A DNA stretch of 64,000 nucleotides from Callorhinchus milii (lineage: Eukaryota). Of the stretch, positions 18,276-64,000 are shown piece after piece; within the stretch, counting starts at the first letter, position 1; the number at the start of each line of letters is the position of its first letter. The stretch is taken from contig NW_024704742.1 in the NCBI RefSeq assembly GCF_018977255.1, positions 24,802,001-24,866,000 on the forward strand, written 5' to 3'. A program made the translations under genes and the position numbers. The notes below the pieces were generated by a model. The model made no database searches. It worked only from the letters and a program-made list of their open reading frames with translations, and was not told the DNA's origin.

Positions 18276-18285
18276 CCTGCCTTAC

Positions 18286-37389: not shown

Positions 37390-39275
37390 CAATACAACAA
37401 CAAAATTACATTTGTATAGCATCTTTCACGTCGCGAGGACGTCCCAAGGAGCTGGACAGACAGAGTTACAGACCCGAGCTGAGGGTCGGGATGGACGAGA
37501 CGGAGGGACTGAGGGATGGAGTTCCAGAGGGTGGGTGCAGAGTGGCAGAAGGCCCGCCCGCCGATAGTGGGGCGAGCAAGGCGGGGGGCATGAAGCAGCC
37601 GGAGACCGCTGAGTGGAGGGAGCGAATAGGGTGGTGGGGAGTTAGGTGGTCGGAGAGGTAGGGGGGGAGCAAGACCGTGGAGGGCTTTGAAGGTGAGGAC
37701 CAGGATCTTGAACTGTATCCTCGTGTGATGGGAAGCCAGTGGAGTTGGGCGAGGATGGGGGTGATAGGGTCGTGGAGCCTGGTGCGGGAGAGGACACAGG
37801 CTGCAGAGTTCTGGATGATCTGCAGCCTGTGGAGGGAGGAGTTGGAGAGGCCGACAAGCAGTGGTTGCATAGTCGAGCCTCGATGTAATGAAGTCATGTA
37901 TGAGGGTTTTGGCTGCCTGCGGTGTGAGACAGTGTCGGAGCCGGGGGATGTTGCGGAGGTGGGGGAAGGCAGAGTGGGTCATGGTGCAGATGTGGGGTAG
38001 GAAGGATAGTTGAAGGTCAACCAACACCCCAAGGTTCTGGACTGGCTTAGTAAGATGGAGTATGAAACCATGGATGGTGATGCTGTTAGCGCCTGAGATG
38101 TGGAGGCGCTGACAGGTGCCAATCAGGAGAGCCTCGGTCTTGTTGAAGTTCAACTGAAGAAAGTTAGCTCTCATCCAGGACTTGTTGTCTGACAGACATT
38201 CTGTCAGGACAACAGTGGTCCTGGAATCAAGGGTGGAGGCAGAGAGGTAGAGTTGGGTGTCATCCGCTTACTATGGAAGTTGACCCCATGTCTGCGGATG
38301 ATGTGAACAAGAGAGAACATACAGATATTGAAGAGGAGGGGACCAAGGACAGAGCCCTGAGAAACACCGCACAATATAGTGCGGGGGATAGAGAAGAAGC
38401 CGTTTAAGGAGATGAAGTGCAGGAGGTGTGAGAGGTACGATCTGAACCAATCAAGGACAGCGCTGTGGAGGTTGAAGTAAGAGGAGAGGTGATGAGGATA
38501 GAATGGTCGACAGTGTCGTAAGCAGCAGAGAGGTCAAGGAGGATGAGGAGGTAGAGGGGGCCCTGGTCGCAGTTGGACAGAATGTCATTTGTCACTTTGA
38601 TCAGGGCTGTTTCTGTGCTGTGGGTGACATAGAAGCCCAATTGGAGGGGTTCGAGAAGGGAGTGGCGGGAGAGGAAGGAGCGTAGCTGAAAAGCAACAAC
38701 TCATTCCAGGACCTTGGAGAGGAAGGGGAGGTTGGAGATGGGGTGGTAGTATGGGAGTAAAGAAGGGTCCAGGGAGGGCTTTTTAAGAATAGGAGTGATG
38801 ACAGCGATTTTTAAATGGGTAGGAACAGTACCAGAGGACAGGGAGTTTTACCATGTCAATGAGTACAGGGGCAAGGAGATGGAGCTGGGAGGTAAGGATG
38901 GAGGTAGGGATGGGGTCGAGGGAGCAGGTGGTGGGTTTCATACGGATTATGGTGGTGATGAAAGAAGAGGGGGAAGCAGGTTCAAAGGTGTGGAGGGAGG
39001 GATGGGTAGGGGTCAGGTGGGAGGGGGAGATGGGGAGGGGGTAGCAGATGCAATGGCAGAGGCAGCTGAACGGATTTCCCTGACTTTGGATTCGAGGATG
39101 TCCATCATCGCCTCGCAGTTCGCATTTGAGGTGAGGATGGGTGAATTGTGAGAGGGTGGGCGGAGGAGCCAGTTTGTGATGGAGAAGAGGAGCCTGGGGT
39201 TGTCCTTAGCCTCCAAGATTGTCTTGGAGCAGAATGACGATTTAACGGACGATTTGACAATATCCGACATACAGC
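37390..39275 (-). mobile_element. Degenerate L2 LINE in PLRG1 intron 1
   Basis: [14 protein letters not shown]...[22 protein letters not shown]; colinear with the copy at about 14400-16335. Confidence 0.9.
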
Positions 39276-40557
39276 CATGAAGTGAACCATGGAAGTGAAA
39301 CATGAAGTGAATAAAACCAATTTTGTCCGTGGGGGGAGGGGTTTTGTTGGTTAGAAACTTCTTTCTCTTTTTGATTAGCGCAATGGGACCCTGAAGTCCA
39401 CCTGAACAGGCAGATGAAGATGAAACCGCAGTTTAACGTCTCATCCAATGGACAGCACATCCAACAATGCACACACTGTTTTGGAATATCAACAAAGAGA
39501 CTACTACTACAACAACAACAACAAATTACATTTCTTTTGCGTCTTTCACATCAGGAGGAAGTCTATTTGAGTTCAAAGTTCTGACATTAGGCTTGAACCC
39601 ACAACTTTCTGACTTAGAAGCAGCACACATTCGTTGAGTGAATCTAAATCAGTGAAAATTAACAAATTGGTAAAAGCAATCTAGCAAAGCAGCAACATTC
39701 AAAGTTACAAATCAGATCAGCGAACCAACAGCAGTAAATAACTGGGAGAAAGCTTGAAATACAACTGTTTGCATTCACATAGCATCTCCATGTAGGGAAA
39801 CATCTTCAAGCGATTGTGCATGTGTGCGGTTGCCTGTTTCTCTATGCATCTTGTCTTTGTAAAATCACCTACAAAATTCAGTCATTACACTGGATAGCAA
39901 ACCCTGTACAACGTCCTCACAAGTATAAGATAGCAATTGGGGGTGGCTAAAACAGGAACTTCTTCGAGAAAGAGGGCATGCAGTCCTGTAGCTCAAGTTA
40001 GAGCACTCGCAGGGCAAAACCTCGGGCAAGTTTCCTTACTCCATACGCCTGATAATAATCTCGAGAGAGAGAGAAAAAAAACTCTAATAAATTGGTCATT
40101 TCAATCCACGCCTGTCTGCGCGCAATTGGCTGCTGCGTTTCGCCCACAAACCTACCGCCAATTCGCTTTACGGTCTATTCCGTGAAACGCTTTTTTGGAG
40201 ACGTCGAGAAGACGCGATAAGTCGCGGTGTCAAAAATGCAGCGATGATGATGACGACGACGACGGTGATGACGATTACGATTGAGATTGGGGAACACAAC
40301 GCCCCAAAACAGATGGTTAGAGAGTGGCGCTCAAGAGGAACCCGGACGTACGCATATGAGGCAGAGGGAGTGGGAGCGGGTGGAGGGCTCATGTGGTGGA
40401 GTATAAAACACAGAGGCACATGGAGGGGAGGGGGAGGGGAGGCGCTCCCTCGCTCTGTGTGTGTGAGAGAGTCTCACTGCTCCGCTCCCAGTGAGGCCCC
40501 ACTCAAGGCGGGACAATACAAAGCTGTCTGTCAGCCCGTGACACATTCTATACAGTT

Positions 40558-45818: not shown

Positions 45819-47879
45819 TTAGATGTGACCTTTCCGGTCAGGAATATCTTCTCCTCTTTCATCCATAGACATGCGTTGCATGGCACTTTTTAACCTTCTT
45901 TGAATTGATTGTTGATCTGGAGAGTCACCTCCTTGGGTGGACCAGGATACTGAATGTGTTGTACGACTTCCAACAACTGAACTATCTCCATCGCTTACAC
46001 TACCACCGGCGTCAGGTAGTGGCTGTCTCGGATCAAAAGTATGAAAATCCCTGAATTCTTCGAACCTTGCAAAGGGATCGAAATCATCTGTGCCTCTCAC
46101 TGCATGACTTTCAGTAACAATAGAGTGTTTGCCTGTTTTGGTGCCTGAGGATGTTAAAGCACTAAAATCACGTGTACTTCCACCTTTACCTGTTTTAGTT
46201 CCTGTTACTGTTGTAAGCCTCCTGGACCCCATACCTGTGGTCCCAGGTTCTGTCCCAGATTGTAATCTAAGTCTGTCAAAATGTGAGCCCATAAATTCCG
46301 GAAATTCCGAAATTTCAGGAAAACCATCTGAGCCGCTTGTCATTGTGACTCTTTCAGTGGTTTTGCCATTTTTTGTAACAGTTGTTTTTGTGTAGGTTCT
46401 GGAACCATGTGTTGTGTGGAACCGTGTATCATCAATATCACCTCTGCCTCCTGTACCCTCTCCAAGACCATGTGCAACTCTGCTTTCTTCCCTACCACCG
46501 TCCCCAATTACTATGCCACTTGTCTGTTTCCGATCAACAGTGTGAAAATAACTGTGATCTGAAAAAGGTTCAGGTGTCCCAGCAACACCCCTGCTACTAC
46601 CCACCAGTCCACCACCTAATGAGGTTGTGGAGCCTGCCTGATGATGAAACGATCCATCTGTTTTGGTTGAGTAGCTTGTACCAGAGGTAGAAGCCCCACC
46701 TCTTTTGGGAAAGTAACCTGTATCAGAGGTAGAAACCCTATCTCTTGTGTGTAAGTAGTCTGTACCAGAGGTGGAAGCCCCACCTCCTGTGGTTGAGTAG
46801 CTTGTACCAGAGGTAGAAGTCCCATCTCTTGTGGGTAAGTGACCTGTATCAGAGGTAGAAACCCTATCTCTTGTGTGTAAGTAGTCTGTACCAGAGGTGG
46901 AAGCCCCACCTCTTGTGGTTGAGTAGCTTGTACCAGAGGTAGAAGTCCCATCTCTTGTGGGTAAGTAACCTCCTGTATCAGAGGTAGAAACTCTATCTCT
47001 TGTGTGTAAGTAGTCTGTACCAGAGGTAGAAGCCCCACCTCCTGTGGTTGAGAAGCTTGTACCAAAGGTAGAACCCCTATCTTTTGTGGGAAAGTAACCT
47101 GTATCAGAGGTAGAAACCCTATCTCTTGTGTGTAAGTAGTCTGTACCAGAGGTGGAAGCCCCACCTCTTGTGGTTGAGTAGCTTGTACCAGAGGTAGAAG
47201 TCCCATCTCTTGTGGGTAAGTAACCTGTATCAGAGGTAGAAACTCTATCTCTTGTGTGTAAGTAGTCTGTACCAGAGGTAGAAGCCCCACCTCCTGTGGT
47301 TGAGAAGCTTGTACTAAAGGTAGAACCCCTATCTTTTGTGGGAAAGTAACCTGTATCAGAGGTAGAAACTCTATCTCTTGTGTGTAAGTAGTCTGTACCA
47401 GAGGTAGAAGCCCCACCTCCTGTGGTTGAGTAGCTTGTACCAGAGGTAGAAGCCCCACCTTTTGTGGGAAAGTAACCTGTATCAGAGGTAGAAACCCTAT
47501 CTCTTGTGTGTAAGTAGTCTGTACCAGAGGTAGATGCCCCACCTCTTATGGGTGTGGAGGTTGCACTATGAATGGAAGCCTCACTTCCACCTTTAGGAGT
47601 TTCTTCTAGGGAAAATATTTGGAAATCTCTTTCAGCCCAGAATTCAGGATATCTACTGTCAGTCATTCCAGATTTATGAAGAGAGTCTGGATCAGATTCC
47701 TTCAAACTCCTCATTTTGAACACGTGCGTTGGCTTTGAGTATTCAATCCTGTCGACTGACATGCTATGTAATGATCCGAGTTTTTTGTCCAATTGGGCGT
47801 CACTCTCCCCGCTGATGCTGTAGGCAAAGGACTTGGCACAAGATCCTTTGCAGGATCGTATCTTGATGTCAATGTCAAC
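45819..47879 (-). CDS. FGA: Fibrinogen alpha-type chain, exon 5 (second disulfide ring, alphaC repeats, alphaC region, stop)
   Basis: ag|VDIDIKIRSCKGSCAKS... open for 686 codons to TAA at 45821-45819. Confidence 0.93.
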   Translation of the reverse strand, partial: VDIDIKIRSCKGSCAKSFAYSISGESDAQLDKKLGSLHSMSVDRIEYSKPTHVFKMRSLKESDPDSLHKSGMTDSRYPEFWAERDFQIFSLEETPKGGSEASIHSATSTPIRGGASTSGTDYLHTRDRVSTSDTGYFPTKGGASTSGTSYSTTGGGASTSGTDYLHTRDRVSTSDTGYFPTKDRGSTFSTSFSTTGGGASTSGTDYLHTRDRVSTSDTGYLPTRDGTSTSGTSYSTTRGGASTSGTDYLHTRDRVSTSDTGYFPTKDRGSTFGTSFSTTGGGASTSGTDYLHTRDRVSTSDTGGYLPTRDGTSTSGTSYSTTRGGASTSGTDYLHTRDRVSTSDTGHLPTRDGTSTSGTSYSTTGGGASTSGTDYLHTRDRVSTSDTGYFPKRGGASTSGTSYSTKTDGSFHHQAGSTTSLGGGLVGSSRGVAGTPEPFSDHSYFHTVDRKQTSGIVIGDGGREESRVAHGLGEGTGGRGDIDDTRFHTTHGSRTYTKTTVTKNGKTTERVTMTSGSDGFPEISEFPEFMGSHFDRLRLQSGTEPGTTGMGSRRLTTVTGTKTGKGGSTRDFSALTSSGTKTGKHSIVTESHAVRGTDDFDPFARFEEFRDFHTFDPRQPLPDAGGSVSDGDSSVVGSRTTHSVSWSTQGGDSPDQQSIQRRLKSAMQRMSMDERGEDIPDRKGHI
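46653..47537 (-). repeat. Coding tandem repeat in the alphaC connector: 21 x 42-nt units arranged as 7 x 126-nt triplets
   Basis: ASTSGTDYLHTRDR / VSTSDTGY(F/L)PT(K/R)xx / xSTxxTS(Y/F)STTxGG repeated seven times. Confidence 0.95.
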
Positions 47880-48829
47880 CTAACAGGAAAACAGAAGAAA
47901 ACAGTCATTGTTAATAGAAAAAAAATGAGGTGAAATATCATGTTTGTCTCAATTTATACTGCAGCACTATACAGTTTGTTCAGGGATGACCTCCCTTCCC
48001 CCCACCCCACCCCTGGCCAAGGACAGAGCCATTCAAAAGAGGAGTCATGGACACCACAAAATTTACAGTCAATTCACTTTACAGTATATCCTATGAAGCG
48101 CTTTGAGACATCTCGAAGACGTGATAAGGAATTCTATCAAATACAAGGATTATTATTATAGACCGGCCAGCCTGGCTCATCAGCTGGACTTGAACGGACA
48201 GACTAGTCACCGGGGGCAGTAATTCTTCTCACTCAGCTCCTGTTAATTCTGCAGCACTAATGGGTAAAGTGGTTCTAGCTGGACAAGCAGTGGGAAGCTT
48301 GTTATATAGTTATAATAATGATCCTTTCATTGATTTAACACTTTTCACATTGGGAGGACATCTCATAGCGCTTCACAAGATACACTGTAAAGTGCAGTGA
48401 CTGTATGTTTTGTGGCAGGTTATGCTGTTTTAACTGGTTAAATTACAAAACGTGCCCCAATACACACTCTGGGTTTGTAGATTTCTTGCCAACCTGTGCC
48501 TAATACTCTCTAGATTTAGGTAAAGAGAGTGAGTCCCTACACAGAGAGAGTTTGCATTCCATAAGGGGCATTTTTACGTGTTAGTGGTGTGTACAAGTCC
48601 TCTCAGACTGGTTTGGCTATGCTTAAGCATGGTAATGGGTTTCCACACATAACAGAGTCCCTGCTGTAAATCTGCTGCTGTTCACAAATGTACTCAGTTC
48701 ATAACCCTCACGATAAAGAAACAAATACCATTTTAACAGCTGTTCCCATAGTAATACTGTTCTTTCAGGGGGAAAAAAAACATGAGTAAAAGTATTCTCA
48801 AATTTCAACAAAAAAACCTTGTCATTTAC

Positions 48830-48975
48830 CTCCAGTCGGGTGATTTCTTTGAATTGTTCGAATATACCTCTTTTCAGAGATTGTATTTTGGTGGTTTGAC
48901 GATTGATTCTCTCCTGCAAGCTGAGAAGTCGGGTCTTGAGTGAATCCACCAGCTGATAGTAGGTAGTACCAGAGT
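48830..48975 (-). CDS. FGA: Fibrinogen alpha-type chain, exon 4 (coiled coil)
   Basis: DSGTTYYQLVDSLKTRLLSLQERINRQTTKIQSLKRGIFEQFKEITRLE; 146 nt, phase 1/0. Confidence 0.95.
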
Positions 48976-49014
48976 CTAAAGGTGCAGAAAAAGACAATAA
49001 TTCGATTAGAAACG

Positions 49015-49316
49015 TTTTGAATCCCGGGCAGGGTGAAACCTTACACAAGTTTCCCTACTCCACACGCCTCTGTTTACCTAGTAGTAAGTAGAAAACCGGT
49101 TGTTAGTTGATTGGTTAGCTTTCCGGGGTAATCATCCCTCAAAAAAATCTGGTCACTCAATCCACAACTGTTTGTGGGATACTGCTATGTGTAATTGTCT
49201 GCCGCTTTTCACCCACAAAATAGACAATCAATCCTCTTTTCAGTATATTCTCTGAAGCAATTTGAGACATCTCAATGAGTGATTGGGCATTATATCAAAT
49301 TCAAGGATTATTATTC
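49015..49316 (+). mobile_element. tRNA-derived SINE filling most of FGA intron 3
   Basis: Family body and tail; head truncated. Confidence 0.8.
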
Positions 49317-49359
49317 AAACAACGTTATGAAATGGACGGGCAGTAGAGGAAACTCTCAC

Positions 49360-49543
49360 CTCCCACTTCGTTCAGAGTTTCCCTGATTCTTCTGGCCGCA
49401 TCGGTGACGCTCACATGGGTAGATCCATATATTTTTGAGTAGTCGTCCAACATCTGTCGAATCTTCCTTACTCTGTCAGCCGTTTTGCGATCTTCATGGT
49501 CCATCAGCCCTTGGATTCGGCATCCGGATGGGCATTTCGGACC
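49360..49543 (-). CDS. FGA: Fibrinogen alpha-type chain, exon 3 (disulfide ring, coiled coil)
   Basis: GPKCPSGCRIQGLMDHEDRKTADRVRKIRQML...; 184 nt, phase 0/1. Confidence 0.95.
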
Positions 49544-49762
49544 CTGTGCCAAGTAATTCAGATTTTTTTTAAAAAATTGCTTTGCAACATGTCATTCATT
49601 CAATGCATGACATTGAATGAATGATATAAAAAGTAGTTTCAGACACAAAAAATAGAATCAATTCACTTCACAGTATATTCTCCTCGAAGAAATGATAAAG
49701 TGCTATATGAAATTCAAGTAATTATTATTGATCTCGCAAACCGAGATCTAAATGCCACCTAC

Positions 49763-49882
49763 CCAGTCCTCATCAGAGCACAAAGAGAAGCCACTCTCAT
49801 CTGAGCATCCCAGTTTAGTAGATCTACTGCGATCTTTGGCTTGTGTAGGGCGGGCTCCTCGAGCTGTCAGCTGGGATTCTGA
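49763..49882 (-). CDS. FGA: Fibrinogen alpha-type chain, exon 2 (fibrinopeptide A, knob, N-terminal cysteines)
   Basis: SESQLTAR-GARPTQAKDRSRSTKLGCSDESGFSLCSDEDW|gtagg; the CSDEDW motif is typical of alpha chains. Confidence 0.9.
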
Positions 49883-50137
49883 CTGAGAGAAAACATCAAA
49901 AGTAAGGTTCGTCTTTGCAGATCAAATGTCTATTTCTATCTAAGATTTTTACTGAATCAAACAAGGTTCGTAAGGAAGATCTGATACACGTTTCACTCAC
50001 TCAAAGCCTTGATCGTTTGTTTCTAAGTGGTACCAAAGAAATACGATTGGTGTTTAACTGTGTCTTTTCTGTGCTGGTCAAAGTAAATGAGTGAAATCCG
50101 CCTTTCGGCAGTGTGCAGAGCAAGAAGGGAAACCCAC

Positions 50138-50191
50138 CCAGTGTAGAAGCGTGCAGCATACTAACAACCCCAGCACCAGAGCCGATCTCAT
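50138..50191 (-). CDS. FGA: Fibrinogen alpha-type chain, exon 1 (signal peptide)
   Basis: MRSALVLGLLVCCTLLHW|gtggg. 54 coding nt ending in Trp, as recalled for FGA exon 1. Confidence 0.85.
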
Positions 50192-50327
50192 CTTTCCTAT
50201 TGCTCAGTAGACCTGAAGGAGATGTCTCTCCTGTCTCCCTTTCATCCAATTTGAATCTCAACAAGATCTGTGATGTCAGTTAGTGTGTGTATGTGTGTGG
50301 GAGAGGGGAGGGGGGGAGGGAGTGTCC

Positions 50328-50356
50328 TGTTTACGCAGAACTTGTCAATTATTTAC
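50328..50356 (-). promoter_or_regulatory. Candidate FGA promoter elements (forkhead TGTTTAC; HNF1-like GTCAATTATTTAC)
   Basis: Motif matches 140-165 nt upstream of the ATG. The HNF1-like site has 2 mismatches to GTTAATNATTAAC. Confidence 0.4.
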
Positions 50357-50601
50357 CACCCATTGCTTACACAATTTATCCCTCGTATCTGTGACCTTTC
50401 CAGTATGTCTGCTGACACATCCAAGGTCTCAAAGCTTTTCCAAACTCCTGCACAAGCATGTCATGTGCAAAACAGGATTGCTCCACTCCAAATGATGTGG
50501 TCAGCTCTCTGGGATGGGAAAAAAATGGATGATTTAGTCCATGTAGAATTGTCCTACCGCACTAGGACTGTGAATGCCAAGGTTGAGCATCCACATCCAC
50601 A

Positions 50602-51050
50602 CCTTGGGCAAGTTTCCTCACTCCACACGCCTAATAATAATCCCTCCAAAACCAAAAACAATAATAAATTGGTCATTTTCAATCTACGACTGTTTGTGGG
50701 ACATTGCTGTGCGCAATTGGCTGCCGCGTTCGCCCACAAATATACAGTCAATTCACTTTACAGTGTGTTCTGTGAAGCGCTTTGGGACGTCCTCCCGACG
50801 TGAAAAGCGCTATATCAAATGCAAGGATTATTATTATTATCTCCAAGTCTCATTAATAATAATAATCCTTGCATTTGATATAGCGCCTTATCACATCTTC
50901 AAGATGTCTCAAAACGCTTTACAGAATATACTGTTAAGTGAATTGATTGTATATTTTGTGGGTGAAACGCAACAGCCAATTGCACATAGCAGTGTCCCCC
51001 AAACAGTCGTGGATTGAGTGACCAAATTATTTTTATTTACTTTTGAAGGA
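50602..51050. mobile_element. Two SINEs tail-to-tail (plus 50602-50840; minus about 50853-51050) upstream of FGA
   Basis: Family body followed by a reverse-complement copy after a short spacer. Confidence 0.85.
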
Positions 51051-53780
51051 ATTACTAAGATGATGTGATAAGGCACTGTGTCAAATGCAAAGATTATTAT
51101 GAAGGCTCAGTTTATTGCTGTTGGGTCCAATTTGAATCTCAACATTGCGGTATACAAATTGACTAACTTGTTCACCTACAAGTATATAGTCATTACACTT
51201 TAAAGGAAAGCCTGTGAAGTACTTTGAAAGACACTTTATTGAATACAAGGATTATTTACAAATATTTTCCCTCAGTCATTAATTAGTTTTCAACAAATTC
51301 CCATAAGATGTATCCTAATAAGCCCCTGTATCTGTAACATATTTGCTTGGAAAATATTTGTTGAACAGTGTGTTTCAGTTTGACTAAGAAACTTGTGACC
51401 TTGTGTTCTCTTTGCTAAATAAAAAGATCAATACTGTCTTCATCAAATGAAAGGGTTTTGAGTAAAAATGGACAAGTTAAACTTTTGTTCGCCTACAGAC
51501 TATATAGTCACTATACCTTATAATAAATCCTGTGAAGCACTTTGAAAGGAATTGTATTAAATGCACTGTATTAAATTATTATTTTGTTAAATATTGACAA
51601 ATGGAACATTACAGAATCCATAAAAAATCAAATATATCTTTAATTAGTAATTATATAATACAAGTATTGGGGAAATGTATCTAGAGTCAACCGAAAATTG
51701 TTAATAATTACAAATATAACCTTTAAGTTGGTTTAATAGCAACTTACTAACTAAAATAATAATCCTTGTGTTTGATATAGTGCCTGTAGTGTTGAACCAT
51801 CAAATCTATTTCATAGGATATACTATAAAGTGTAGTGACTGTGTATTTACAGAAACAGCTCATTTTTGCAAATCATTGATAAATAGTCCTGTAGTGCAAC
51901 GAGAGACCTGGGTTTGCTTCTTGGCAGGGCAAAACTTGGGAAAGTTTCCTTACTCCACACGCCTGATAATATTCCCTCAAGAAAAAACCCTAATAATAAT
52001 TTGGTCACTCAATCCACGACTATTTGTGGGACTCTGCTGTGCGCAATTGGCAGTTGCGTTTTGCCCACAAAATATACGGTCAATTCACTTTACAGTATCT
52101 TCTGTGAAGTGCTTTGAGACGTTCAGAAGACGTGAAAAGTGTTATATCAAATGTAAGGATTGTTATTAATAAATAGCCATGAATGACCGATTATATCTGG
52201 AGGATTGTTCATTAGTACTGGAAGAAACTCATCTGCCTGTTCAGGTGAATGTTAAATATCCCTATGGCACTATTCAAAATGAGAAGTGAGTTTCTCCCAG
52301 TATCCATTTTTTTTGGTCAGCTGAGTGTTTGACACATGAGGAAACCCATCCACATGTTTAAGAGTATCCAAACCAAGCTGAGAATTCCATGCATCCCACC
52401 TACACATGGAAATCCCAGAGATAGATTGTTGGAATGGAATGCACACTCTCCCTCTAGAGGGACACATCCTGCTTATCTAATTCCGAAGAGTATGAGGTGC
52501 AGGTTGGCGAGAGCCAAGGCTTGGGGACCCCGGAGTGCGTGTTGGGGTCCTGCTGGAGTCTAACCAGCTAAAACTGCACAGCTTGCAATTGATATTGCTA
52601 TCCGGCAAGCTTTCCCACTGCTTGTCCAGCTAGGACCACCCTACATGTTAGAAAGGACAATAATCCCCTGGATAAAATTGATCATTCACTTCATGCCAAT
52701 TTGTAGGACATTGTTCTTAGTGCATAATTAATTTAATGCTTGAGGGTAGGTAGATGTTGAAGCGGGTAAAAGTTTTGGATAAACACTTTCTGATAAGTTT
52801 ACCTCAGTCCTAAAAAAAGTTGAAACTTCATGGTTGCACTTTTACTGAAGAAGAAACCTTGGGTGTATTTTGGTCTTTTCCATAATTGGAATTCACAATT
52901 CACTGGCTGCAATTTTTGCTGCATATCTTGCAGTTCGATGTTCGTAAACCAGAAGACGCAACTAATGCAAAAATAATAATAATAATTTGGCCACTCAATC
53001 CACGACTGTTTGTGGGACATTGCTGTGCGCAATTGGCTGCCGGTTTTGCCCACAAAATGCACTGTCAATTTACTTTACAGTCTGGACTTGATTCAAAGTT
53101 CCAATGTGGGGTTTAACCCATAAACTTCTGATTCAGAGATAAGAGTGCTACCAACTGAGACTGGATGACACCCAAATTTACTTTGCGGTATGCTCAGAAT
53201 GGAAGACCAACATCTAAATGTTTCAACTGAACCAAATTATTATGCAATGAGCAGAAGTGGAAATATCAATTCTAATCATAGACTAAAGGGAATTGTGCTG
53301 GACTCATTTAATGGCACCATTGGTAAAAGCCACTAATCAGTTTGAAATTGATCAATACTGAAAGGTTCCTGATTCAATTGCATCTATGCTGAATTAGCTG
53401 ATGGCAAACAGACAGGCTCTAGGGGGCTCTATTAGTTGGCCTCAGCAAACAGGAGGAAACAATCAGCCAGTGTTTCCAATCTTCATGGAAAGTCCATGTG
53501 TGTGAATGGCAGACAAGGCAGCATTAGCTCAGCAGTGATACCTCCATAGTCAACTAGCCCTGACGCACATTTTCTAGGTAATTGTATATGAGTCACTAAT
53601 TTTCAGTAATGGACTAAAATGATTCGTTACCCGTTTACTGAAAAGTTAAAAATACTTTTTTTTTACTCTGCTCCCATTGTAAAATAGGAGACAAAACCAA
53701 GCAAGCAACAGGAATTACAACAAGCCTGTTGAGAATTTATAGGCTTACCCCCAGTGGCTGATGCCTGTGCAACTTGTATG

Positions 53781-54113
53781 TGGAGTCCCATAGCATAGTG
53801 GTTAGAGCACTTGCCTTGCAAGTGAGAGGACCCAGGTTGATTCCCGATGCGGTGAAACCTTAGGCAAGTTTCCTTACTCCACACGCCTCGTGTTTACCTA
53901 GCAGTAAGTAGGATCCTGCTTGTTAGTCGATTGACGGATCACTTTCCAGGGATAATAATTCCTAAAAAAAATTTGGCCACTCATTCACAGAATACCGCAC
54001 TTCACCCACAAAATACACAGTCAATCCACTTTACAATATATTCCGTGAAGCCCTTTCAGATGTCTCAATGATGTAATAAGATGCTATATAAAATGTAAGG
54101 ATTATTATTATTA
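53781..54113 (+). mobile_element. tRNA-derived SINE (variant with the gtttacctagcagtaagtagg segment)
   Basis: Family head and tail. Confidence 0.82.
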
Positions 54114-55539
54114 ATTTTACCCCATAAATCGAGGGTTTGAGGAGAAGCTGGGGAGGAAAAAATGACAGGGTAAAAATACCTAAACCAGCTTAGTATGCAG
54201 ACTGTGATCTATTGTTTATTAAAATACTGGTCAAATTAGTTGTGGAATCATAGATAAGGCTCCCACCAACATCTCCTCATTTCCACCTTTGGCCTCCGCC
54301 TCTGACTTCCCTGGCTTTGCTCTGACACTTACTGAACCAATGCACAAGATTGGGGTTCAGTTTGATTCTTGGCTCTCCTCCTATCCTCACAATCATTCCT
54401 GACCAAGACGGCTTTACTTCATCTTCGCCACATTGCTCGCCTTCCTCCCTATCTCACACAAAATGCTGCCAAAATTCTCATTTCACGTCTTTGTTATCTC
54501 CTGACTCTCTACAGTCTTCCTAGTTCCACCATTCACATGTTCCACCTCATTCAAAAACTCGTTTGAGAGGCGAGTGTTGTAACCACTGAGCAACAAGGTC
54601 ACACTAAGCTGCAGGACTCCACGAACGACTGGATATAAAGAAGGAAAAATAACTCAGATTGAACCAAATGCCAAGGCTGGTGATGGTGTGAGCTTCAGAA
54701 AGGTTCTTGGTAGTGTCCCAAGGACAGAGCATCATTTCAGTAAATGAGCTAACAATTAGAGACCTATTCACTGCTGGTTTTATCAATGTACCTCATCAGT
54801 GGTACCTCAATGTATATCAGTGGTACCTCAAAGATCAGAGTTTAAAACTGCAATGTTCACTGTGCTGAGATATATGGTACTTTGATCTATGTTACTATTG
54901 ACTGGCCCTGTTTCATAACCTTAAAACAATGATACAAAGGCACATTTCCTCCTTGATATTGTACAATATTTTCTAATCATTTTTGTGATGTTAAAAAGAG
55001 TACAATCCTTTTGTTTAATGATAAGAAATATGCATGATACTTCAATCATAATGATAAAACATCTGAAGGACGTCTCAAAATGCTTCACAGGATGTGGTAA
55101 ATGTATTTTGTACATATTTTGTAGACAGGGACTAACATGTCAAACAGTGATTCCTAGGATGCACCTCCATTGACCAATTGACCTTTATTGATCAGCTAAC
55201 TAAATGTTGCTGTTGCAAGTAGAACAAGGATCTGCGATAGCAAAGTTAACCTTTAAAGAGATAAATTCAACCACCTTTGTAAAAAAAGAGGACATTGTAC
55301 TGCTGTCCAAGTAAACATAGTGATTTTAGTTTGGTTTATTATTCTTGCTCAATATGGCCCTGGGGACATGATGAGACATATTTACTGATGTGGTGGTTTA
55401 TTGATTAGTTTCTGTTGAAGTACTGCCTTGTGAAATAGAAATGTTTGGAAATGTCACTGTCAAATATTGATAGTCCTGTTGGTTTCATCAATGTATTCCA
55501 TGTATTATATGGCAATGTTAGTTTTACATTTAATCTAAT

Positions 55540-56128
55540 AACAACAATAGCAATGACAAATTACACTTGTATAATGCCCTTCACTTTGGAAAAACATCTC
55601 AGGGTGCTAGACAGTAAGAGTTTTTTGAATCCAAGCTAAGAGTTGGGATCAGAAGGGGTGGAGGGCAATGGGTGTGTGGTTGGAAAGGTGGCCAAAGGCA
55701 TGGTCAAAAAGGAAGGTCTTTAGAAGGAGGAAAGAGAAGGGGTGAGGTGGAGGAATTGTGGGATAGAGTTCCTGAGTGTGGGGGTAGAGCTGCTGAATGC
55801 CCAACCACCAATGGTGGGCGGTAAGTGCGGGGGACCTGAAGCAGGCCAGTGTCCGGGCGTAGATAGGCTGATTTGGGATTAGGAGGTCGGAGAAGTAGGG
55901 GGAGCAAGACCATGGAGAGCTTTGAAGGTGGTAATGAGTGTTTTGTACATGATTCTATGAGGGATGGGGAGCCAGTGAAGACAGGCAAGAATGGTTGTGA
56001 TTGGTTCACGGAGTCGACTGTGGGAGAGAACACAAGTTGCAGAGTTTTGAGTAATCTGCAGCTTGTGGAGGGAAGAGTTGGGAAGTCCGGTGAGCAGGCA
56101 GTTGGCGTAGTCATGCCAGGACTTGATG
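55540..56128 (-). mobile_element. Older L2 LINE 3' fragment
   Basis: DYANCLLTGLPNSSLHKLQITQNSA...LHWLPI. Confidence 0.8.
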
Positions 56129-56378
56129 AAAGATTGACTGTATATTTTATGGGCAAAACACATCAGACAGTTAGCGCACAGCAATGTCCCACAAACAGCC
56201 ATAGAGTGAGTCACCAATTTTATTTGGGAGAGTGTTGTTGGCTGTAAGAGGTTTAGTGGGGGACGACACAGTCACCAGTGCAGCAGAAGGTCACACAGAC
56301 CAGGTTTCAGATTTGATTCCCGAGTCTGTGTGGAGCACTATAATTGGCTGTAGTTTCTCTATAATAATAATACTAATG

Positions 56379-56446
56379 ATGTGCACTGCTCAGTCACTGC
56401 ACTTTACTGCATATCCTGTAAAGTGCAGTGACTGAGCAGTGCACAT
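56379..56446. repeat. Perfect 29-bp inverted repeat with a 10-nt loop
   Basis: atgtgcactgctcagtcactgcactttac-tgcatatcct-gtaaagtgcagtgactgagcagtgcacat. Confidence 0.95.
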
Positions 56447-57236
56447 TAAAGTGCAGTACCTCTTGGCTAGGATGGGGAAAATGATCCAGGGTTCCTAATC
56501 CTGATCACTATCTGTTGAGTCCTCCTGGAAAGTACTTGTATGTGAACATAGGAAAACAAGGTCAGGCTCAGCTGCAAGTCAATTACAATAGTTATCCCAC
56601 AATGCCTACACGCACACGTGGAGCTGGTAACGTGCATGGAATGCCCCACCTTCAGAACCTAAAATTGGTAACACTATATTGTGGAAACTAATAGTCATTG
56701 TACAAATACACAACAAAACATAATTAGTCCCCAATTAAATTACAACAACTTGCATTAATTTAACTTTTCATGCAGGATGGAGTCTTGGAGCACTGTACAG
56801 TAGAGGGTTTGGAGGCTGAGAAAGCAAGAAGGGGGAGATGATCAGAGGCACAGTCTATGATGTATAAGACACTTTACTGCCTTATACTAGTTGTGCCACT
56901 TTTGACGATCTGTGCTTTAAACCTCAAAGTAATTTGTCTTCTTGGAATACCAATAAAAAAGGTTTAACAAAATTGTTTTTCTGTTGTATTAAAAGATCCA
57001 ATGCAAGGATCATCTATTGGCAGGCCCAAAGTCTCCGGGACCATTTGAATGCAAAGCCCATGAAGTCCATAAAGATATTTTATTGTACTATAAAACCATA
57101 GAACATTTCAGCAGAAAAGGCCTTTCGTCCATCATGTCTTTACTTGCTCTTTGAAAGAGCAATCTGTTCAGTCCCATTTATCCACCTTCTCCCCATTACT
57201 CCTGCAAATTACCCTTTTCGGCTTAACTTCAAGCCT

Positions 57237-57328
57237 AATCCTATATCTAATTTTATGCCCAATCCTATTTATGTTATCCTATGACTAATTCTATGACTAA
57301 TCCTATACATAATCCTATGTCTCATCCT
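57237..57328. repeat. Degenerate 12-bp tandem repeat
   Basis: About 7-8 copies of taatcctatNNN. Confidence 0.7.
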
Positions 57329-57779
57329 GGTTACTATTTGCACACAGCAATGTCCTAAAACCATTTTGAAGTGAATGACCAATTTTATTTCGGAGGGAGA
57401 TATTTGCTAATGACACTGGAAGAAACTTCTCTTTGTTCAGGATACTCTCCCAATTATATGTCTACCTCTTCAAGTTACATTAAGCCTATCAGGATAGTTA
57501 AATACCAACAGAGCCCTGGAGAACTGCCAGGCTCAGGGTGCTGGATTGTTGAATCCACCACAAAGAGCCTCAACACAATTTCTCTTCACCAAGTGTTTCA
57601 ATATGGAATTTCCCCAAGGAGAAAAGTCACATCTTGGTTATCAGGCAGCTGACAAGTGCGAGACTCATTTCTCTAGACAGACAGGTATTACCAGGAACTT
57701 TCCCCAGGCGGTAAGTTCAGTGCGACTCCTTGAGTTCTTTATGAATATTATTAAAAATTAATATTAGTATAGCTCTAAA

Positions 57780-58100
57780 CTCCGAACTTCTGTCACACTA
57801 GTCCTCACCAGGCTTCACTTGCTCCCTATCAGAAAATGGATTGACTTCAAGATCCTTGCACTTGTCTACAAATCCCTTCACACCCTGGCACCTCCCTATG
57901 CCTCTGACCTATTTTCTTCCCACATCATCACTCGCCACCTCCGCTTTGCTGACTCTAGCCTCCTGCTTGTCCTTTGTTCCCTCTGTTCCACCATCAGTAG
58001 CCGTGCTTTCTGCTACTACACCCCAAAACTTTCCCTCAATCCCTCTGCCTTACCCCTCCTTCCCCACTTTCAAAACACGCTTAAGACCTTCCCCTTCAAC
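57780..58100 (+). mobile_element. Old L2 fragment
   Basis: LPIRKWIDFKILALVYKSLHTLAPPY. Confidence 0.7.
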
Positions 58101-58509
58101 TGAATGTACTATAGGAAGAATAGCTGTGGGTCGAAATTGATGTCTAGGGTGTGCACCAGTTTATTGAGTCTAAGGGATATGCTGGGAAGGTTGAGGAGGT
58201 CAGAGCTGCACGACAGAAGACGAACTAGACAGACTTCAGAAGGGAACTAGATAGATATCTAAAAAGGAGTAAACTACAAGGGTATGGGGAAAATACAGGG
58301 ATTGAAAAGATTGCTCTTTTAAAAAGAACCCGCATAGACACAACTGGCCGAATGGCCTTCTTCTGTGTTGACCTGTAAGTATTTATCACTTTATGATTTT
58401 GTACTATTTCCTCAATCAGCAACTAATCTTTCTTGTTGCATCTGTACTAAAATGGCCAGGGTTACAATAGGAGTTTGCCAGTCACCAACCTGAAAAAAAT
58501 CCTCCTGTT

Positions 58510-58598
58510 TCAAATATTAACCAGATTCTAAACACTGATCAGTCATTTGATCCAACCTCCTCTGGCCCCAGTACTGATGCTGAACCAAAGATATAAAA
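58510..58598 (+). promoter_or_regulatory. FGB proximal promoter: HNF1 site (58510-58521) and TATA box (58592-58598)
   Basis: TCAAATATTAAC matches the mammalian FGB HNF1 element as I recall it; TATAAAA lies about 90 nt upstream of the ATG. Confidence 0.75.
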
Positions 58599-58683
58599 GG
58601 AACTGCAAAGGCCAGAGGGAGAGTTTGTGAGAAGGGACAAGTAAGTAGAGGTAGTAGATCAATAGAGCTACCACTTCAGCAAC

Positions 58684-58800
58684 ATGAAAGTATTCTTCCT
58701 ACTTCTGTGCATCACAGCAGCTCAAATGTCTGATGTTAGTTCGGTGGACCTTGACAGTCTAACTGATTATGACGAAGATTTAGAATATCATGGTGGGATG
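58684..58800 (+). CDS. FGB: Fibrinogen beta chain, exon 1
   Basis: MKVFFLLLCITAAQMSDVSSVDLDSLTDYDEDLEYHGGM|gtgagt; signal peptide plus acidic fibrinopeptide B. Confidence 0.9.
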
Positions 58801-59221
58801 GTGAGTGGCATGACTGTGCATGTTTTCTTGTGGCGGATACATTGTATATGAGAAGGCTTACGGTCCAGTGTTTCTTTTCCTTTGAAGTCCAAAAGTTTAT
58901 ATCTTCTGACTAATTTTCTTTCTTTTCTACATGGGAATCTCAATACTCAAGGAAATCACTTTGCATGTGTCAAGCTCTCATTTGAAGTTATTTTCTAATA
59001 ATGCTTCCATTGAACCTCTGAAACAGATAATGCAATAATCTCAATCTTAAGAACTTCAGGAATTTTCGGTCCCTGATTTCAAACTACATACATATATTTT
59101 GATATCTACAAAGGTTTTGTTTAAACATTACTCTATTAATAAGGGTATAAATTGCACCCAGAAAATAGTTATTTTCTTCAGCTTCCTCTTACAGCCATGA
59201 ATCTTCTAATATTCTCCTAAG

Positions 59222-59507
59222 GGAGTCCTGTAACTCAGTGGTAAGAGCATTCACCTAACAAGCGAGAGACTTGGGTTCAATTCCCAGCAGCGTGAAACCT
59301 TGGGCAAGTTTCCTTACTCCACACACCTGATAATATACCCTCAAGAAAAAAACCCATAATAAATTGGTCACTTCAATCCACATCTGTTTGTGGGACACTG
59401 CTGTGCGCAATTGGCCTACAAATATACAGTCAATTCACTTTACAGTATATTCTGTGAAGCGCTTTGGGACGTTTAAAAACGCTATATCAAATGCAAGGAT
59501 TATTATT
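59222..59507 (+). mobile_element. tRNA-derived SINE in FGB intron 1
   Basis: Family head and tail; an inverted partial copy follows at about 59577-59750. Confidence 0.85.
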
Positions 59508-59805
59508 TTTGTTTATTTTATTCACTGCTGAAAGAAATTGTAAATTCTCTTAAATAATAATGAATAATTAATTATTTAATAATAATACTTGCATTTGATA
59601 TAGTGCCTTATTACATTGTTGAGATGTCTCAAAGGACTTCACAGAATATACAGTACAGTGTAGTGGGCGAAATACGGCAGCCAACTGCGTATAGAAGTGA
59701 CCCACAAATAATCGTGGATTGAGTGACCCTCAATTTTTTTTGAGGGATCATTTACAATTTATAGTTGCTGGCTGTACTGAATGTTCTGTTGTTTATCCCA
59801 CACAG

Positions 59806-60030
59806 GAAGGTGAAGTGTACCCAGTAATTGATCCTCGTGGACACAGACCAACGTCTGGTCATGGAGACAGGCCATTGCCAAGTTTGCCAAAGCCAGCGGG
59901 TAGGCCAACATACGATGTTGCAAGAAAAAGAACTTCAAGCCTGCTCCCAGTTCCAGAAAAACAGGCCAAAATATCTGATGAAATTGAGGTGTCTGATCAA
60001 GGAGGATGCATGCATCTCAGCAGTGAACTG
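59806..60030 (+). CDS. FGB: Fibrinogen beta chain, exon 2
   Basis: EGEVYPVIDPR-GHRP (thrombin site, knob B) ... GGCMHLSSEL|gtgaga. Confidence 0.95.
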
Positions 60031-60783
60031 GTGAGAACAATCTGCAACAATGTGGAATGGGAAATAGTAACTTTCTAACATGGGAGTAATGAGGGAGTGA
60101 TGTGATAATTCAGTAGAAACACAACCAAACTTCTGTGAGAATGGTCTTGGGTGTGAGGGGAAGTGTTAGTTAAGAAAGCCAGGTCTGATATAAGTGTATA
60201 TTGTCCCAAGAAGTTGTCCTATGTAAAGAGCGCTACATAAATGCAAGTCGTGTTTAGATGGAGATAGCTATAAACAAGTTTACTGAGCATAAGTTTAAAG
60301 ATTGTCAGCACAGATGTACATGTGCCCATTTTCAGTATTGTGCTGCACTGGTAAAAGACAAACACAACTGTAGCATTGCTGTTACATGCTCTATGCTGTG
60401 TTGATACAATGTCACTGTGCACAGACATGTGCAAATTGTACAATGCAGAATAACAAAGCACCTACAACTAGGGGTTTCCTCTGCTCAAGCATCTGCAACC
60501 CCACCCCACTGAGAGACAGAGAACGAAGAGACTTGGAGAGAGATAGAAGGGCTGGCACAATCTAGTACAACAGTGACAGTATAATTCATAATGGAACAAT
60601 GTTTTATTTAGCTCTGTAGCCAATTTATATTTTGCATGATGTGCAACTACCTGCATTGTTTGTTGATCTGCAATGGAGCCAGTCAATCGCCTCTACTATA
60701 TTATTCTGAATGAAAATACATTTTCGCAAATGTTACTCACTTATCAAATTGATTTGTTTTTATTCATCAACCTTCTGTTCAAG

Positions 60784-60967
60784 TGTGTAATGTGCCCTAC
60801 TGGTTGTGTATTGAGAACTGACCTCCTGAAGCAGGAACGCGATATTAAACCAGTCATTACAAGTTTGCAAAGCAATGTTTCAAGTCTTAGTCGCTCGAGT
60901 CACTCGATTCAGTATTATGTGGAAAAGATGGACAAGGAGCTGGAACGGAGACGTTCACAATACACAG
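60784..60967 (+). CDS. FGB: Fibrinogen beta chain, exon 3
   Basis: CVMCPTGCVLRTDLLKQERDIKPVI...; 184 nt, phase 0/1. Confidence 0.93.
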
Positions 60968-61233
60968 GTACAGCATTCTTGTTTCTTTGTAAGTACATAA
61001 TTTGCCCAGTTTATAATACTTATTCCTTAGAGCATCAGGGGAAGAATCTCCCATTCCGTTATGTTTGTATTTGGGGTGATCATTTTCAAATGCAATCTAA
61101 AAAAGATCAGATGCTTTATGTTTTCAAATGGACAGTGTCACATGTCAGAATTATTGGGCACATTACTCTGAAATCAATTGCTCCAGGCGAAAAACATGTC
61201 ATCTCTTGTGAATATGCAACATCTCCTTCACAG

Positions 61234-61461
61234 GTAACAATTATGTAGTGGAATCATATAGTACAGAGTTGGAGGAGCGTTTTATCCTGATAAAGGACAC
61301 CATGGACAGGAGTCTTCCCTCCACCATCCGTATGATGCGCTCCATTGTGGACAGCTTCAAAGAAAAGCTGCTGAAGCTTGAACGAGCATTGGAGACTCAG
61401 AAAGGTTACTGCAAAGATCCATGCGTAGTTTCCTGTAACATACCAGCAATATCAGGAAAAG
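61234..61461 (+). CDS. FGB: Fibrinogen beta chain, exon 4
   Basis: NNYVVESYSTELEER...YCKDPCVVSCNIPAISGK; 228 nt. Confidence 0.95.
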
Positions 61462-61577
61462 GTAAACTAGCCAGACAATTTTTTTAACATTAAGTATCTG
61501 TTTTTAAAAAAAATTTCAGTAAAATGAGCAATGTTCCCAATTCAAGATTCAAACACTCACTGTTGGATCTTTCCTAG

Positions 61578-61688
61578 ACTGTGATGAAATTCGCAGTAAG
61601 GGCGGTGACACATCCCAACTCTACTTAATCCAGCCAGATTCCTCCCAACCCTACAAAGTGTTCTGTGACATGACAACAGACATGGGAG
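61578..61688 (+). CDS. FGB: Fibrinogen beta chain, exon 5 (start of the C-terminal globular domain)
   Basis: [37 protein letters not shown]. Confidence 0.95.
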
Positions 61689-61789
61689 GTAGGAATTTTT
61701 ACTCTTCCGTGCAGTGCAACATGTGGCTTTGTTCATGCACAGAAGCTTTGTATCGTTTTAACATTCTTGAAACAATTCACGTTTTCCAG

Positions 61790-61912
61790 GATGGACACTA
61801 ATTCAAAATCGAAAGGATGGCAGTGTGGACTTTGGGCGGACCTGGGACGACTACAAAAAAGGATTTGGAAACATTGCATTCGATGTGGGAAAAGGTTATT
61901 GCGATACCCCAG
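61790..61912 (+). CDS. FGB: Fibrinogen beta chain, exon 6; later exons not seen in the window
   Basis: [41 protein letters not shown]|gtgag. Confidence 0.95.
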
Positions 61913-62069
61913 GTGAGAATTCAGGAGCTCTCCAGAAAACCTGGTTTTAGTTCCAGTCAAAAGTGTACAGCAGTGCAGTGGACAATTGACTACAAGGGGT
62001 TTTAAAAAGAGATAGCCCCACAACAAGAAAGATTTATGTTTAAATTGTACCTTTTGTGTTGGAAGAATG

Positions 62070-62435
62070 TCACAAAATTGACTGGATGCCCAAGGTGTCC
62101 AGAGGGAGGAGAGCTGAGGACAATGGTGGTGGGGGCTGGGGTGGGGGGAGATCGGGGGAGAGGGAAAGGAAAAGGTGACCCAAAGTGCTGTTGAAATGAT
62201 AGATATTAAGGCGGACCTTGAAGGTGGGTGGGAAGCGACAAGGTGAAGGGGTTCCACAGGTCAATGGTGGGTCGGATTGAGGTGAGTGACATTCACTGAG
62301 TGGGGTGAGCGATTGGGGCAGAAATTTTGCAGGTGGACACTGAGGTAGGGAAGGTTGTGGCCCATGGGGGGATTTGAATGCGAGGATGAGGATCTTGAGT
62401 TTGATCCACTGGGAGATGGGGAGATAGTGGAGTTG
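62070..62435 (-). mobile_element. Old L2 3' fragment in FGB intron 6
   Basis: QLHYLPISQWIKLKILILAFKS plus the tail. Confidence 0.7.
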
Positions 62436-64000
62436 TAAATAAAAGGAAAGGGTTAGATGGCGCCTCATACAATTGTAGGGTTCACATGAATGGAAATCTG
62501 TAAAGTGATTATAATTTGACTACAGAATGGTTAGTTCCAAGTTCCATGAAATTGTCATCTGGGTGAAGATGCAGAGTGTCAGTCATGATAAATCCCATTT
62601 ACCAAGCCTTTTGTAAATCTCACAATTTAAACCTATTATGTGTAAGTAAATCACTGCAGTTGATGCATGTAATTGCGATCAAAATGGCAAACACCTCTAA
62701 TCTATCGCCCCAGAAAAGAAAGTTAGCCAGACTTTCTTGGGAGAATATAATGCTTTTTTAATGTCTCAAAAGCTACAAGCATTGCCTGCTGTATTACCAG
62801 GGAATCTTTTACACTGTGAGGGCTAATAATTTAATTTAATTATTTACTATTTTGCTTAGTATCTACATTAATCTGATCCCAATAGAGTACAGTCCTACCC
62901 ACTTATCTCAAACTCCTTTATGTCCACATCCCACTTATATCAACAAAAAAGTGAAGTCCCGATCCCTACTCCATACATTAACACTAAAATCTAATTGTCT
63001 ATATTGACGTACTGTCTCTGGCACACTTATGTTTGACAAATGGTTAGGTCCCTAACAACAACAACAACAAATTAAATTTGTATAGTGTCTTTCATGTCAG
63101 GAGGACATGAAAGGCATTGTATTAAAGGCATTGTTCTATTAGAATAATTTGGTCACTCAATCCACTTCTATTTGTGGGATACTACTGTGCACAATTGGCT
63201 GCTGAGTTTGCCCACAAAACATACAGTCAATTCACTTTACAGTAGATTGTGTGAAGCGCTTTGAGATGTCTAAAAGACGTGATAAGATGCTATATCAAAT
63301 GCAAGGATTATTACTATTATTACCACTTATGGCGACAGTGTACTCTTAATGAACTTTTGTTTTGCTTGCTTGACTATTTTTGGAAATAAGGTAATGAAAA
63401 CACATGTAAACAAATGGTTCGGGAATTTTAATTAAATGTATGACATTTTAAAATAAATCAATGTAAATACAGGGTTCAGAAATTTTAATCACAGAACACC
63501 TATTGCCTGCTTGTGACCCTCTATGTTGACAAACTCAAATGATCCATGATGTGTTGACATAAGTAGATAGACTGTATCAATTTTAAACGTCTCCCTTTCA
63601 TCTGAAATAAATGGAAAACCATGTCCTACGAGTGTCTAGTGCGTCCACAGCTCACTGCACTCAAATGCTGCAGTTATTACCAGAATTGCAATCATGTGTT
63701 CACTCTTATCTGAACACTTAACTCCATATACATAGACAGACAGAGACAATAAACTTGCATTTGTTACATTCAATACAGCAACTTATGATGTAGAAAGACC
63801 TTAAAGTACTTCAAAATATGAGTAACTTTGGAAATTGTTGCGAAGGGGCACACAGCACCTCGTCTGCAGCAATAATATCCCACAAACAACAACAGGATGA
63901 AGAAAGCATTCATCTTGAGGTTTTCTTTAGTGGATCTGTAGCAGGGAAAGATTGTAGGCCTGGAAAACTCACTGCTCCTCAAATTTCAATGTGGGGTTTT

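Follow-up and report, generated by a model that had tools for sequence, protein, structure and literature searches.

How many fibrinogen alpha chain genes does a cartilaginous fish have, and on which side of FGB do they lie? The question is raised by a 64,000-nucleotide stretch of Callorhinchus milii DNA (NCBI RefSeq assembly GCF_018977255.1, contig NW_024704742.1, positions 24,802,001 to 24,866,000, forward strand; hereafter the window), in which an alpha gene that we call alpha-A lies between PLRG1 and FGB, head-to-head with the latter. In human, the order is DCHS2(-), PLRG1(-), FGB(+), FGA(-), FGG(-), with FGB and FGA convergent. An earlier note, made from the letters of the window, had offered two explanations for this position: an additional paralog, the canonical FGA being retained downstream from FGB, or a translocated FGA. 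We examined 124 kb (the window plus the next 60 kb to the right, for which the window numbering was continued and is given as extended coordinates), and this sequence contains no N. Two alpha genes are present, and the gene order across the locus is cadherin gene(-), PLRG1(-), alpha-A(-), FGB(+), alpha-B(-), FGG(-). In our judgment (probability roughly 0.8), alpha-A is a functional, expressed second FGA derived from a duplication that predates the split of chimaeras from sharks and rays, with the alpha and alphaE forms divided between the two genes and with exons 3 and 4 converted.

Two alpha genes flanking FGB

Alpha-A is an intact minus-strand gene of five exons (45819-50250) with an 854-codon frame and GT-AG introns. 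The exon bounds were set from open reading frames (ORFs), tblastn of the public protein P0002 and a spliced RNA contig, and the resulting model reproduces P0002 (854 aa), which NCBI names "fibrinogen alpha chain." Listed in the direction of transcription, its features are as follows.

50138-50250, minus strand: exon 1, with the 5′ untranslated region and the signal peptide MRSALVLGLLVCCTLLHW; ATG at 50191; the RNA contig reaches 50250
49762-49882, minus strand: exon 2, with the fibrinopeptide, a thrombin-type Arg-Gly bond, the GARP knob and two N-terminal cysteines
49360-49542, minus strand: exon 3, with the GPKCPSGC disulfide ring and the start of the coiled coil; bounds from the RNA contig
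48976-49359, minus strand: intron 3, holding an interspersed-repeat insertion of ~296 bp at ~49017-49313
48828-48975, minus strand: exon 4, coiled coil; from RNA contig blocks and tblastn
45819-47877, minus strand: exon 5, with the end of the coiled coil (VDIDIKIRSCKGSC ring), a repeat array, RGD, an alphaC-like region and the stop codon
46654-47553, minus strand: tandem repeat array in exon 5, 21.4 copies of a 42-bp (14-aa) unit (Tandem Repeats Finder)

Residues 1-18 of P0002 are placed by tblastn at 50191-50138. Exon 2, which is bounded by the RNA joints 49542/49762 and 49882/50138, translates as SESQLTAR/GARPTQ...LGCSDESGFSLCSDEDW (the slash marks the Arg-Gly bond). The joint between exons 5 and 4 (47877/48828) has GT..AG ends on the minus strand, and exon 5 is a 686-aa open frame that is 100% identical to P0002 residues 169-854, with the RGD at protein residues 647-649. 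The insertion in intron 3 is recognizable by blastn, given that 49016-49315 matches many dispersed copies and its flanks match alpha-B only. Within the exon 5 array, Tandem Repeats Finder also detects a higher-order structure of seven copies of a 126-bp (42-aa) unit (matches of 93% at period 126 and 76% at period 42). A protein from an older assembly (P0001) is 85 aa shorter than P0002 within this 42-aa repeat array, and has one substitution elsewhere. Because the two assemblies differ by 85 aa there, the array is hard to assemble or polymorphic, i.e., it either varies in copy number or was collapsed in one assembly.

Several features identify alpha-A as an FGA gene. Pfam detects a Fib_alpha coiled coil (PF08702; E 8.1e-31, 107.6 bits vs. 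a cut-off of 29.9) and no other domain, and the signal peptide is followed by the Arg-Gly bond and a Gly-x-Arg knob. The expected cysteine pattern is present as well: six cysteines of both alpha-A and alpha-B (two N-terminal, the CPSGC ring and the distal C-K-G-S-C ring) align with those of bony and cyclostome alpha chains. The gene adjoins FGB and PLRG1 inside the fibrinogen cluster, but its place between them is noncanonical. The defining feature of an alphaE chain is missing, as Pfam finds no Fibrinogen_C domain in alpha-A. A tblastn search for an alphaEC relic downstream from the gene (40-45.8 kb) returned none at E<=1.

The second gene, alpha-B, is on the minus strand at extended 77608-91198 (contig 24879608-24893198), ~13.6 kb to the right of the window. 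It is convergent with FGB and is followed by FGG(-) at ~100.2-108.4 kb (extended coordinates), and thus both genes that one would look for to the right of FGB are in place; without alpha-A, the cluster would show the canonical order FGB(+), FGA(-), FGG(-). Six exons with GT-AG introns reproduce exactly the public protein P0010 (750 aa), in which Pfam finds Fib_alpha (E 1.4e-31) and Fibrinogen_C. The best match of exon 6 is the solved structure of human fibrinogen-420 alphaEC, 1FZD (E 4.5e-93; next best match, 1.9e-54). Only alpha-B has this sixth-exon alphaEC domain, and it alone of the two thus qualifies as the alphaE-type gene. The thrombin site and knob read ...MLR/GPRS, vs. ...LTAR/GARP in alpha-A. 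Exon 5 of alpha-B is without RGD and has no apparent repeat array (Tandem Repeats Finder was applied to alpha-A only), and the linker from the coiled coil to the globular domain is ~350 residues long. Intron 2 of alpha-B is ~4.9 kb in length (219 bp in alpha-A), and at extended 83.2-87.7 kb it holds long, retroelement-like open frames, including minus-strand ORFs of 212 aa and 279 aa.

An alpha exon query of the 991.5-Mb genome matched exactly two alpha loci. The whole alpha-B protein matched 31 places, in which the coiled coil (query residues 14-305) was represented only at the two alpha loci; all remaining matches were to the globular domain. The earlier note's first option, an extra paralog with a canonical FGA beyond FGB, is therefore borne out by this genome-wide check, and its second option fails: a translocated single FGA is rejected because the genome holds two alpha loci.

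Alpha-A is transcribed and spliced as modeled, in data from two studies. A 938-nt contig of run X1 covers all five alpha-A exon blocks with 0 mismatches, and all of its joints are GT..AG on the minus strand. Run X3, from a different study, contains three of the four joints again, and none of the four is seen in the DNA run X9, the contigs of which read through the alpha-A introns and cover 29 of 30 bins of the stretch used for this comparison. The run-type labels were guesses, and X1 and X3 were identified as RNA by contigs that lack introns retained in the DNA run.

Age of the duplication and conversion of exons 3 and 4

The two-alpha pair is not peculiar to the C. milii genome, because sharks and rays share it. 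Among the matches listed, an alpha chain without a globular domain occurs in at least eight chondrichthyan species (Callorhinchus, Heptranchias, Mobula, Hypanus, Pristis, Mustelus, Hemiscyllium and Chiloscyllium punctatum), one with a globular domain in at least nine (Callorhinchus, Heptranchias, Pristis, Pristiophorus, Carcharodon, Stegostoma, Mustelus, Narcine and Chiloscyllium plagiosum), and both types in at least four, these lists being limited also by protein length, with absence from either uninformative. In all three elasmobranchs listed with both types, one chromosome-sized contig carries the pair. The two proteins of a species differ along their length, and are thus products of separate genes rather than isoforms; the Pristis pair, for instance, is 72% identical over exons 3-4 and 49% identical over the 97 aligned columns at the start of exon 5 (hereafter exon 5N).

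The knob sequences of the elasmobranch chains deserve mention. All seven elasmobranch short alphas sampled have GPRP, and Callorhinchus alpha-A, the eighth short alpha, has GARP. The knob arginine is absent from four of the six chondrichthyan globular-type alphas that cover the knob site (P0034, P0027, P0018 and P0273), the sequences being GPQS in Pristis, GPQP in Carcharodon, PPQP without an Arg-Gly bond in Pristiophorus, and DPQS in Chiloscyllium plagiosum. Given this loss in most of the sampled elasmobranch globular chains, a fibrinogen-420-like molecule might not polymerize through the A:a contact, and in elasmobranchs it might instead be a modulator of clot structure.

Alpha-A and alpha-B are orthologous to the two elasmobranch gene types. 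In the tree of exon 5N, alpha-B falls into a single group with the other globular-domain genes (support 95/87 with 25 rows, and 88/88 with 33 rows that include lamprey and hagfish alpha-1), and an approximately unbiased (AU) test on the same columns rejects a clade of alpha-A and alpha-B (p 0.0059). Residues 271-515 of alpha-B match elasmobranch globular-domain genes only (E 5e-36 to 3e-9), and the C-terminal region of alpha-A matches the Pristis gene without a globular domain (E 3e-7). From the tree, the AU test and these type-specific matches in exon 5 it follows that the duplication predates the chimaera-elasmobranch split. A combined tree of the coiled coil and exon 5N, rooted on lamprey and hagfish alpha-1, unites all chondrichthyan alphas in one clade (89/90), separate from bony FGA (97/96).

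It should be noted that the coiled-coil exons, if used alone, yield trees that misdate the duplication. A tree of exons 3-4 instead groups the paralogs of each lineage with one another, with the Heptranchias pair together (98/94) and alpha-A next to alpha-B. Over these exons alpha-A and alpha-B are 83% identical, vs. 52-56% identity to the Heptranchias genes. The divergence between alpha-A and alpha-B along the gene (nucleotide identity from blastn; dS, synonymous divergence) is as follows.

Exon 1: dS saturated
Exon 2: identity 77%, dS 0.45
Exon 3: identity 92.9%, dS 0.164
Exon 4: identity 86%, dS 0.095
Exon 5: identity 73% at its start, dS 0.41 in exon 5N

By blastn, collinear similarity between the two genes is present at exons only, and elsewhere the loci share only dispersed repeats. 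There is one departure from this: in intron 3, 84 of 91 aligned bases are identical (92%), the repeat insertion set aside. Exon 3, intron 3 and exon 4 thus make up a single tract of ~470 bp with exon 3 as its core, interrupted in alpha-A by the repeat insertion, which is absent from alpha-B. This is the signature of gene conversion, and because low synonymous and intronic divergence is confined to the exon 3-4 tract, purifying selection alone is not an adequate explanation. The pattern indicates that exons 3-4 were homogenized by gene conversion.

The events most likely ran as follows. FGA was duplicated before chimaeras split from sharks and rays, probably through tandem duplication of an FGB-FGA block and subsequent loss of the extra FGB, a route that needs no inversion to arrive at the gene order and orientations seen here. 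Each copy would then have retained one end of the ancestral gene, with alpha-A losing the alphaEC exon and alpha-B keeping exon 6. Alpha-A would make the classical chain (fibrinopeptide, Gly-x-Arg knob, coiled coil, repeat-rich connector, RGD and alphaC-like region), and alpha-B, in the canonical position, the extended alphaE chain of fibrinogen-420 type. Both chains presumably enter circulating fibrinogen, in which they share their beta and gamma partners. Recurrent conversion may serve that pairing by keeping exons 3-4 near-identical, leaving exons 1 and 5 to diverge freely. Subfunctionalization is, in our inference from the gene structures, the probable driving process.

A number of observations weigh against this account. 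The evidence from spliced RNA covers alpha-A only, and the knob of alpha-A is GARP instead of the canonical GPR. The latter need not be disabling, because teleost FGA chains also depart from GPR (GARP in eel and salmonids, GTRP or GNRP in other teleosts). In the stretch from PLRG1 to alpha-A, tblastn found no FGB remnant above chance level (best E 0.33). The exon 5N dS listed above is rather low for a duplication that preceded the chimaera-elasmobranch split, which may reflect slow evolution or older conversion. The Heptranchias pair encodes identical proteins through exons 2-3, an identity that we read, from the protein sequences, as recent conversion. Chondrichthyan monophyly in the combined tree could likewise be a product of gene conversion. 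Finally, AU tests rooted on cyclostome alpha-1 do not reject a grouping of the globular-domain type with bony FGA (p 0.41), a grouping of the type without this domain with bony FGA (p 0.36), or a single clade of the type without it (p 0.31).

Lamprey, bony vertebrates and competing explanations

Bony vertebrates have a single FGA that gives alpha and alphaE products through alternative splicing. The five-exon core of that gene is common to alpha-A and alpha-B (signal peptide, Arg-Gly site, Gly-x-Arg knob, two N-terminal cysteines, CPSGC and CKGSC rings, and Fib_alpha). Alpha-B, moreover, has the sixth exon with its match to 1FZD, and occupies the canonical place of FGA, convergent with FGB and upstream of FGG. 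Alpha-A differs in its place across FGB (head-to-head), in having neither an alphaEC exon nor a relic of one, and in its GARP knob. The C. milii system as a whole differs in that two genes do what one bony-vertebrate gene does via alternative splicing.

Lampreys also have two alpha genes, of which alpha-1 is repeat-rich without a globular domain and alpha-2 has a globular end, with no long insert known between the latter and the coiled coil. The two lamprey chains were reportedly described by Pan and Doolittle in 1992. The earlier note had anticipated a lamprey-like pair, and as far as architecture goes (and only so far) this was correct: one C. milii gene is repeat-rich without a globular exon, and the other carries alphaEC. 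A relative of lamprey alpha-1 (P0154, Lampetra) resembles the C. milii pair in its long tandem repeat array and in having a GPR knob, and differs in its repeat unit (18 aa, vs. 14 aa in alpha-A). Alpha-B differs from lamprey alpha-2 in the ~350-residue linker before the globular domain.

Could alpha-A and alpha-B then be orthologous to lamprey alpha-1 and alpha-2, through a duplication at the vertebrate stem followed by loss of one copy in bony vertebrates, which would have evolved or kept alternative splicing? We consider this unlikely, though it fares best among the alternatives. It would account for the likeness in architecture, and it agrees with the AU result in which globular-domain genes plus bony FGA, with the genes lacking that domain outside, cannot be rejected (the p of 0.41 given above). 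Gene conversion, furthermore, can erase old divergence and so imitate a young duplication, and the automatic UniRef name of alpha-A is "alpha-1 chain-like." However, the rooted combined tree unites the chondrichthyan alphas apart from bony FGA and favors a separate chondrichthyan origin. The long exon 5 of alpha-B before the globular domain is as in alphaE, and lamprey alpha-2 is not known to have such an insert. Two predicted Lampetra models, P0261 (L. fluviatilis, 1012 aa) and P0262 (L. planeri, 793 aa), also bear on the matter. In both, an alphaEC-like domain follows the signal peptide, coiled coil and repeats of alpha-1, and the best matches of that domain outside lampreys are to gnathostome FGA (50-57% identity). 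They represent either an alphaE-like splice form of lamprey alpha-1 or neighboring genes fused by prediction. If they are real, one gene with two ends predates jawed vertebrates, and the chondrichthyan division of labor is derived. Lamprey alpha-2 was represented by no candidate among the best 150 in a profile search of 1.84 billion representatives, and a search with the Lampetra globular domain (proteins of at least 556 aa) returned only models linked to alpha-1, with lamprey alpha-2 absent. It is doubtful that cartilaginous fishes keep ancestral separate genes for alpha and a globular-ended alpha, with the single spliced FGA of bony vertebrates as the derived state. The locus does provide a concrete means of asking if the arrangement in lamprey represents the ancestral state.

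A recent duplication in chimaeras only, with the shark and ray pairs arising independently, is very improbable. It would explain why alpha-A and alpha-B are so alike over exons 3-4 and adjacent in the tree of those exons, but the high identity is limited to the ~470-bp tract, which includes intron 3, with only dispersed repeats shared outside exons. In addition, the clade of alpha-A and alpha-B that it calls for is rejected by the AU test on exon 5N, and each paralog-specific region matches only its counterpart among the elasmobranch types.

The idea that alpha-A is an assembly artefact or a decaying FGA pseudogene is scarcely credible, as it has in its favor the 85-aa difference in the array between assemblies, and against it the intact 854-codon frame with GT-AG introns, matching spliced RNA contigs from two studies, the presence of alpha-A in the protein set of the older assembly, a sequence free of N, X9 contigs in 29 of 30 bins, and orthologs in at least seven elasmobranch species among the matches listed.

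An ancient duplication of FGA within the chondrichthyan lineage, which we prefer over these alternatives, is distinct from another case of a second alpha in fishes. In read-through models of teleost fga (P0011, P0015, P0019, P0023 and P0026), a second alpha-like coiled-coil unit that shares the CPSGC ring and the distal C-x-G-S-C ring follows the fga part. These units are short, lie on the same strand downstream from fga, and have no Arg-Gly-x-Arg knob in the sequences seen. They form a clade of their own (100/100) within the bony-vertebrate alpha clade (97/96), and do not group with alpha-A. The models are labeled as fga isoforms or "uncharacterized." The units point to a small, unnamed alpha-like gene adjacent to fga in teleosts.

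Public annotation already includes predictions of both alpha-A and alpha-B, under generic names. In the literature searched we found no account of cartilaginous fishes with two alpha genes, but subscription journals were mostly outside its coverage and an earlier description may exist. The usual view is that jawed vertebrates have three fibrinogen genes, and that the second alpha of the lamprey is a peculiarity of jawless fishes. On the reading preferred here, a whole class of jawed vertebrates would have two alpha genes with the alpha and alphaE forms split between them, which is relevant to the evolution of clotting. Such a two-gene system would be a natural experiment on the roles of the alphaEC domain vs. 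the alphaC repeats, and a clear case of gene conversion restricted to exons that must fit shared partner chains.

Neighboring genes and repeats in the window

The order PLRG1(-), alpha(-), FGB(+) that had been read from the window is upheld by ORFs, tblastn and matches to solved structures. The divergent ATGs of alpha-A (50191) and FGB (58684) are 8,493 bp apart, in agreement with the ~8.5 kb proposed earlier. The remaining features are listed here.

182-20514, minus strand: large cadherin gene (DCHS-like), with a GC-rich first coding exon at 18124-20514
26501-40000, minus strand: PLRG1, with its last WD40 exon at 26501-26824; the 5′ end, near 40 kb, is approximate
50251-58683, no strand: divergent intergenic region from the alpha-A start to the FGB start, 8.4 kb, rich in interspersed repeats
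58684-64000, plus strand: 5′ part of FGB, with the signal peptide, R/GHRP knob, CPTGC ring, coiled coil and start of the globular domain

The FGB ATG sits in ORF 58666-58851 and the GHRP knob in ORF 59701-60078. Pfam detects Fib_alpha on two FGB exon ORFs, and the best solved-structure matches of the last exon are beta chains (E 2e-38, vs. 8e-21 for gamma). The gene runs ~1.7 kb past the window and ends near 65.7 kb (extended coordinates). No fibrinogen relic was found by tblastn in the intergenic region between alpha-A and FGB.

To the left, ORF 26501-26824 (minus strand) matches Pleiotropic regulator 1 among solved structures (E 1.9e-41), and further WD40-like minus-strand ORFs are at 27113-27325 and 28365-28595. 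The gene that had been called DCHS2(-) is indeed a minus-strand cadherin gene: ORF 18124-20514 (minus strand) has five Pfam Cadherin repeats and Cadherin_FAT4_N, and Cadherin is also found on 1176-1541. The gene, with its cadherin repeats and FAT4-like N-terminus, is listed here as DCHS-like, and the specific gene name is taken from the earlier note.

The part of the window at 14000-20500 reaches 73% G+C and has a strong strand skew. Just upstream of the first coding exon of the cadherin gene (~17.0-18.1 kb) is TG/CA-rich simple sequence, in which open frames give His-Thr or Cys-Val runs. One short interspersed repeat family (~75-90% alike) has many copies in introns and intergenic DNA throughout the fibrinogen cluster, including those at 48054-48159, 49016-49315, 50599-51040 and 51900-52170.

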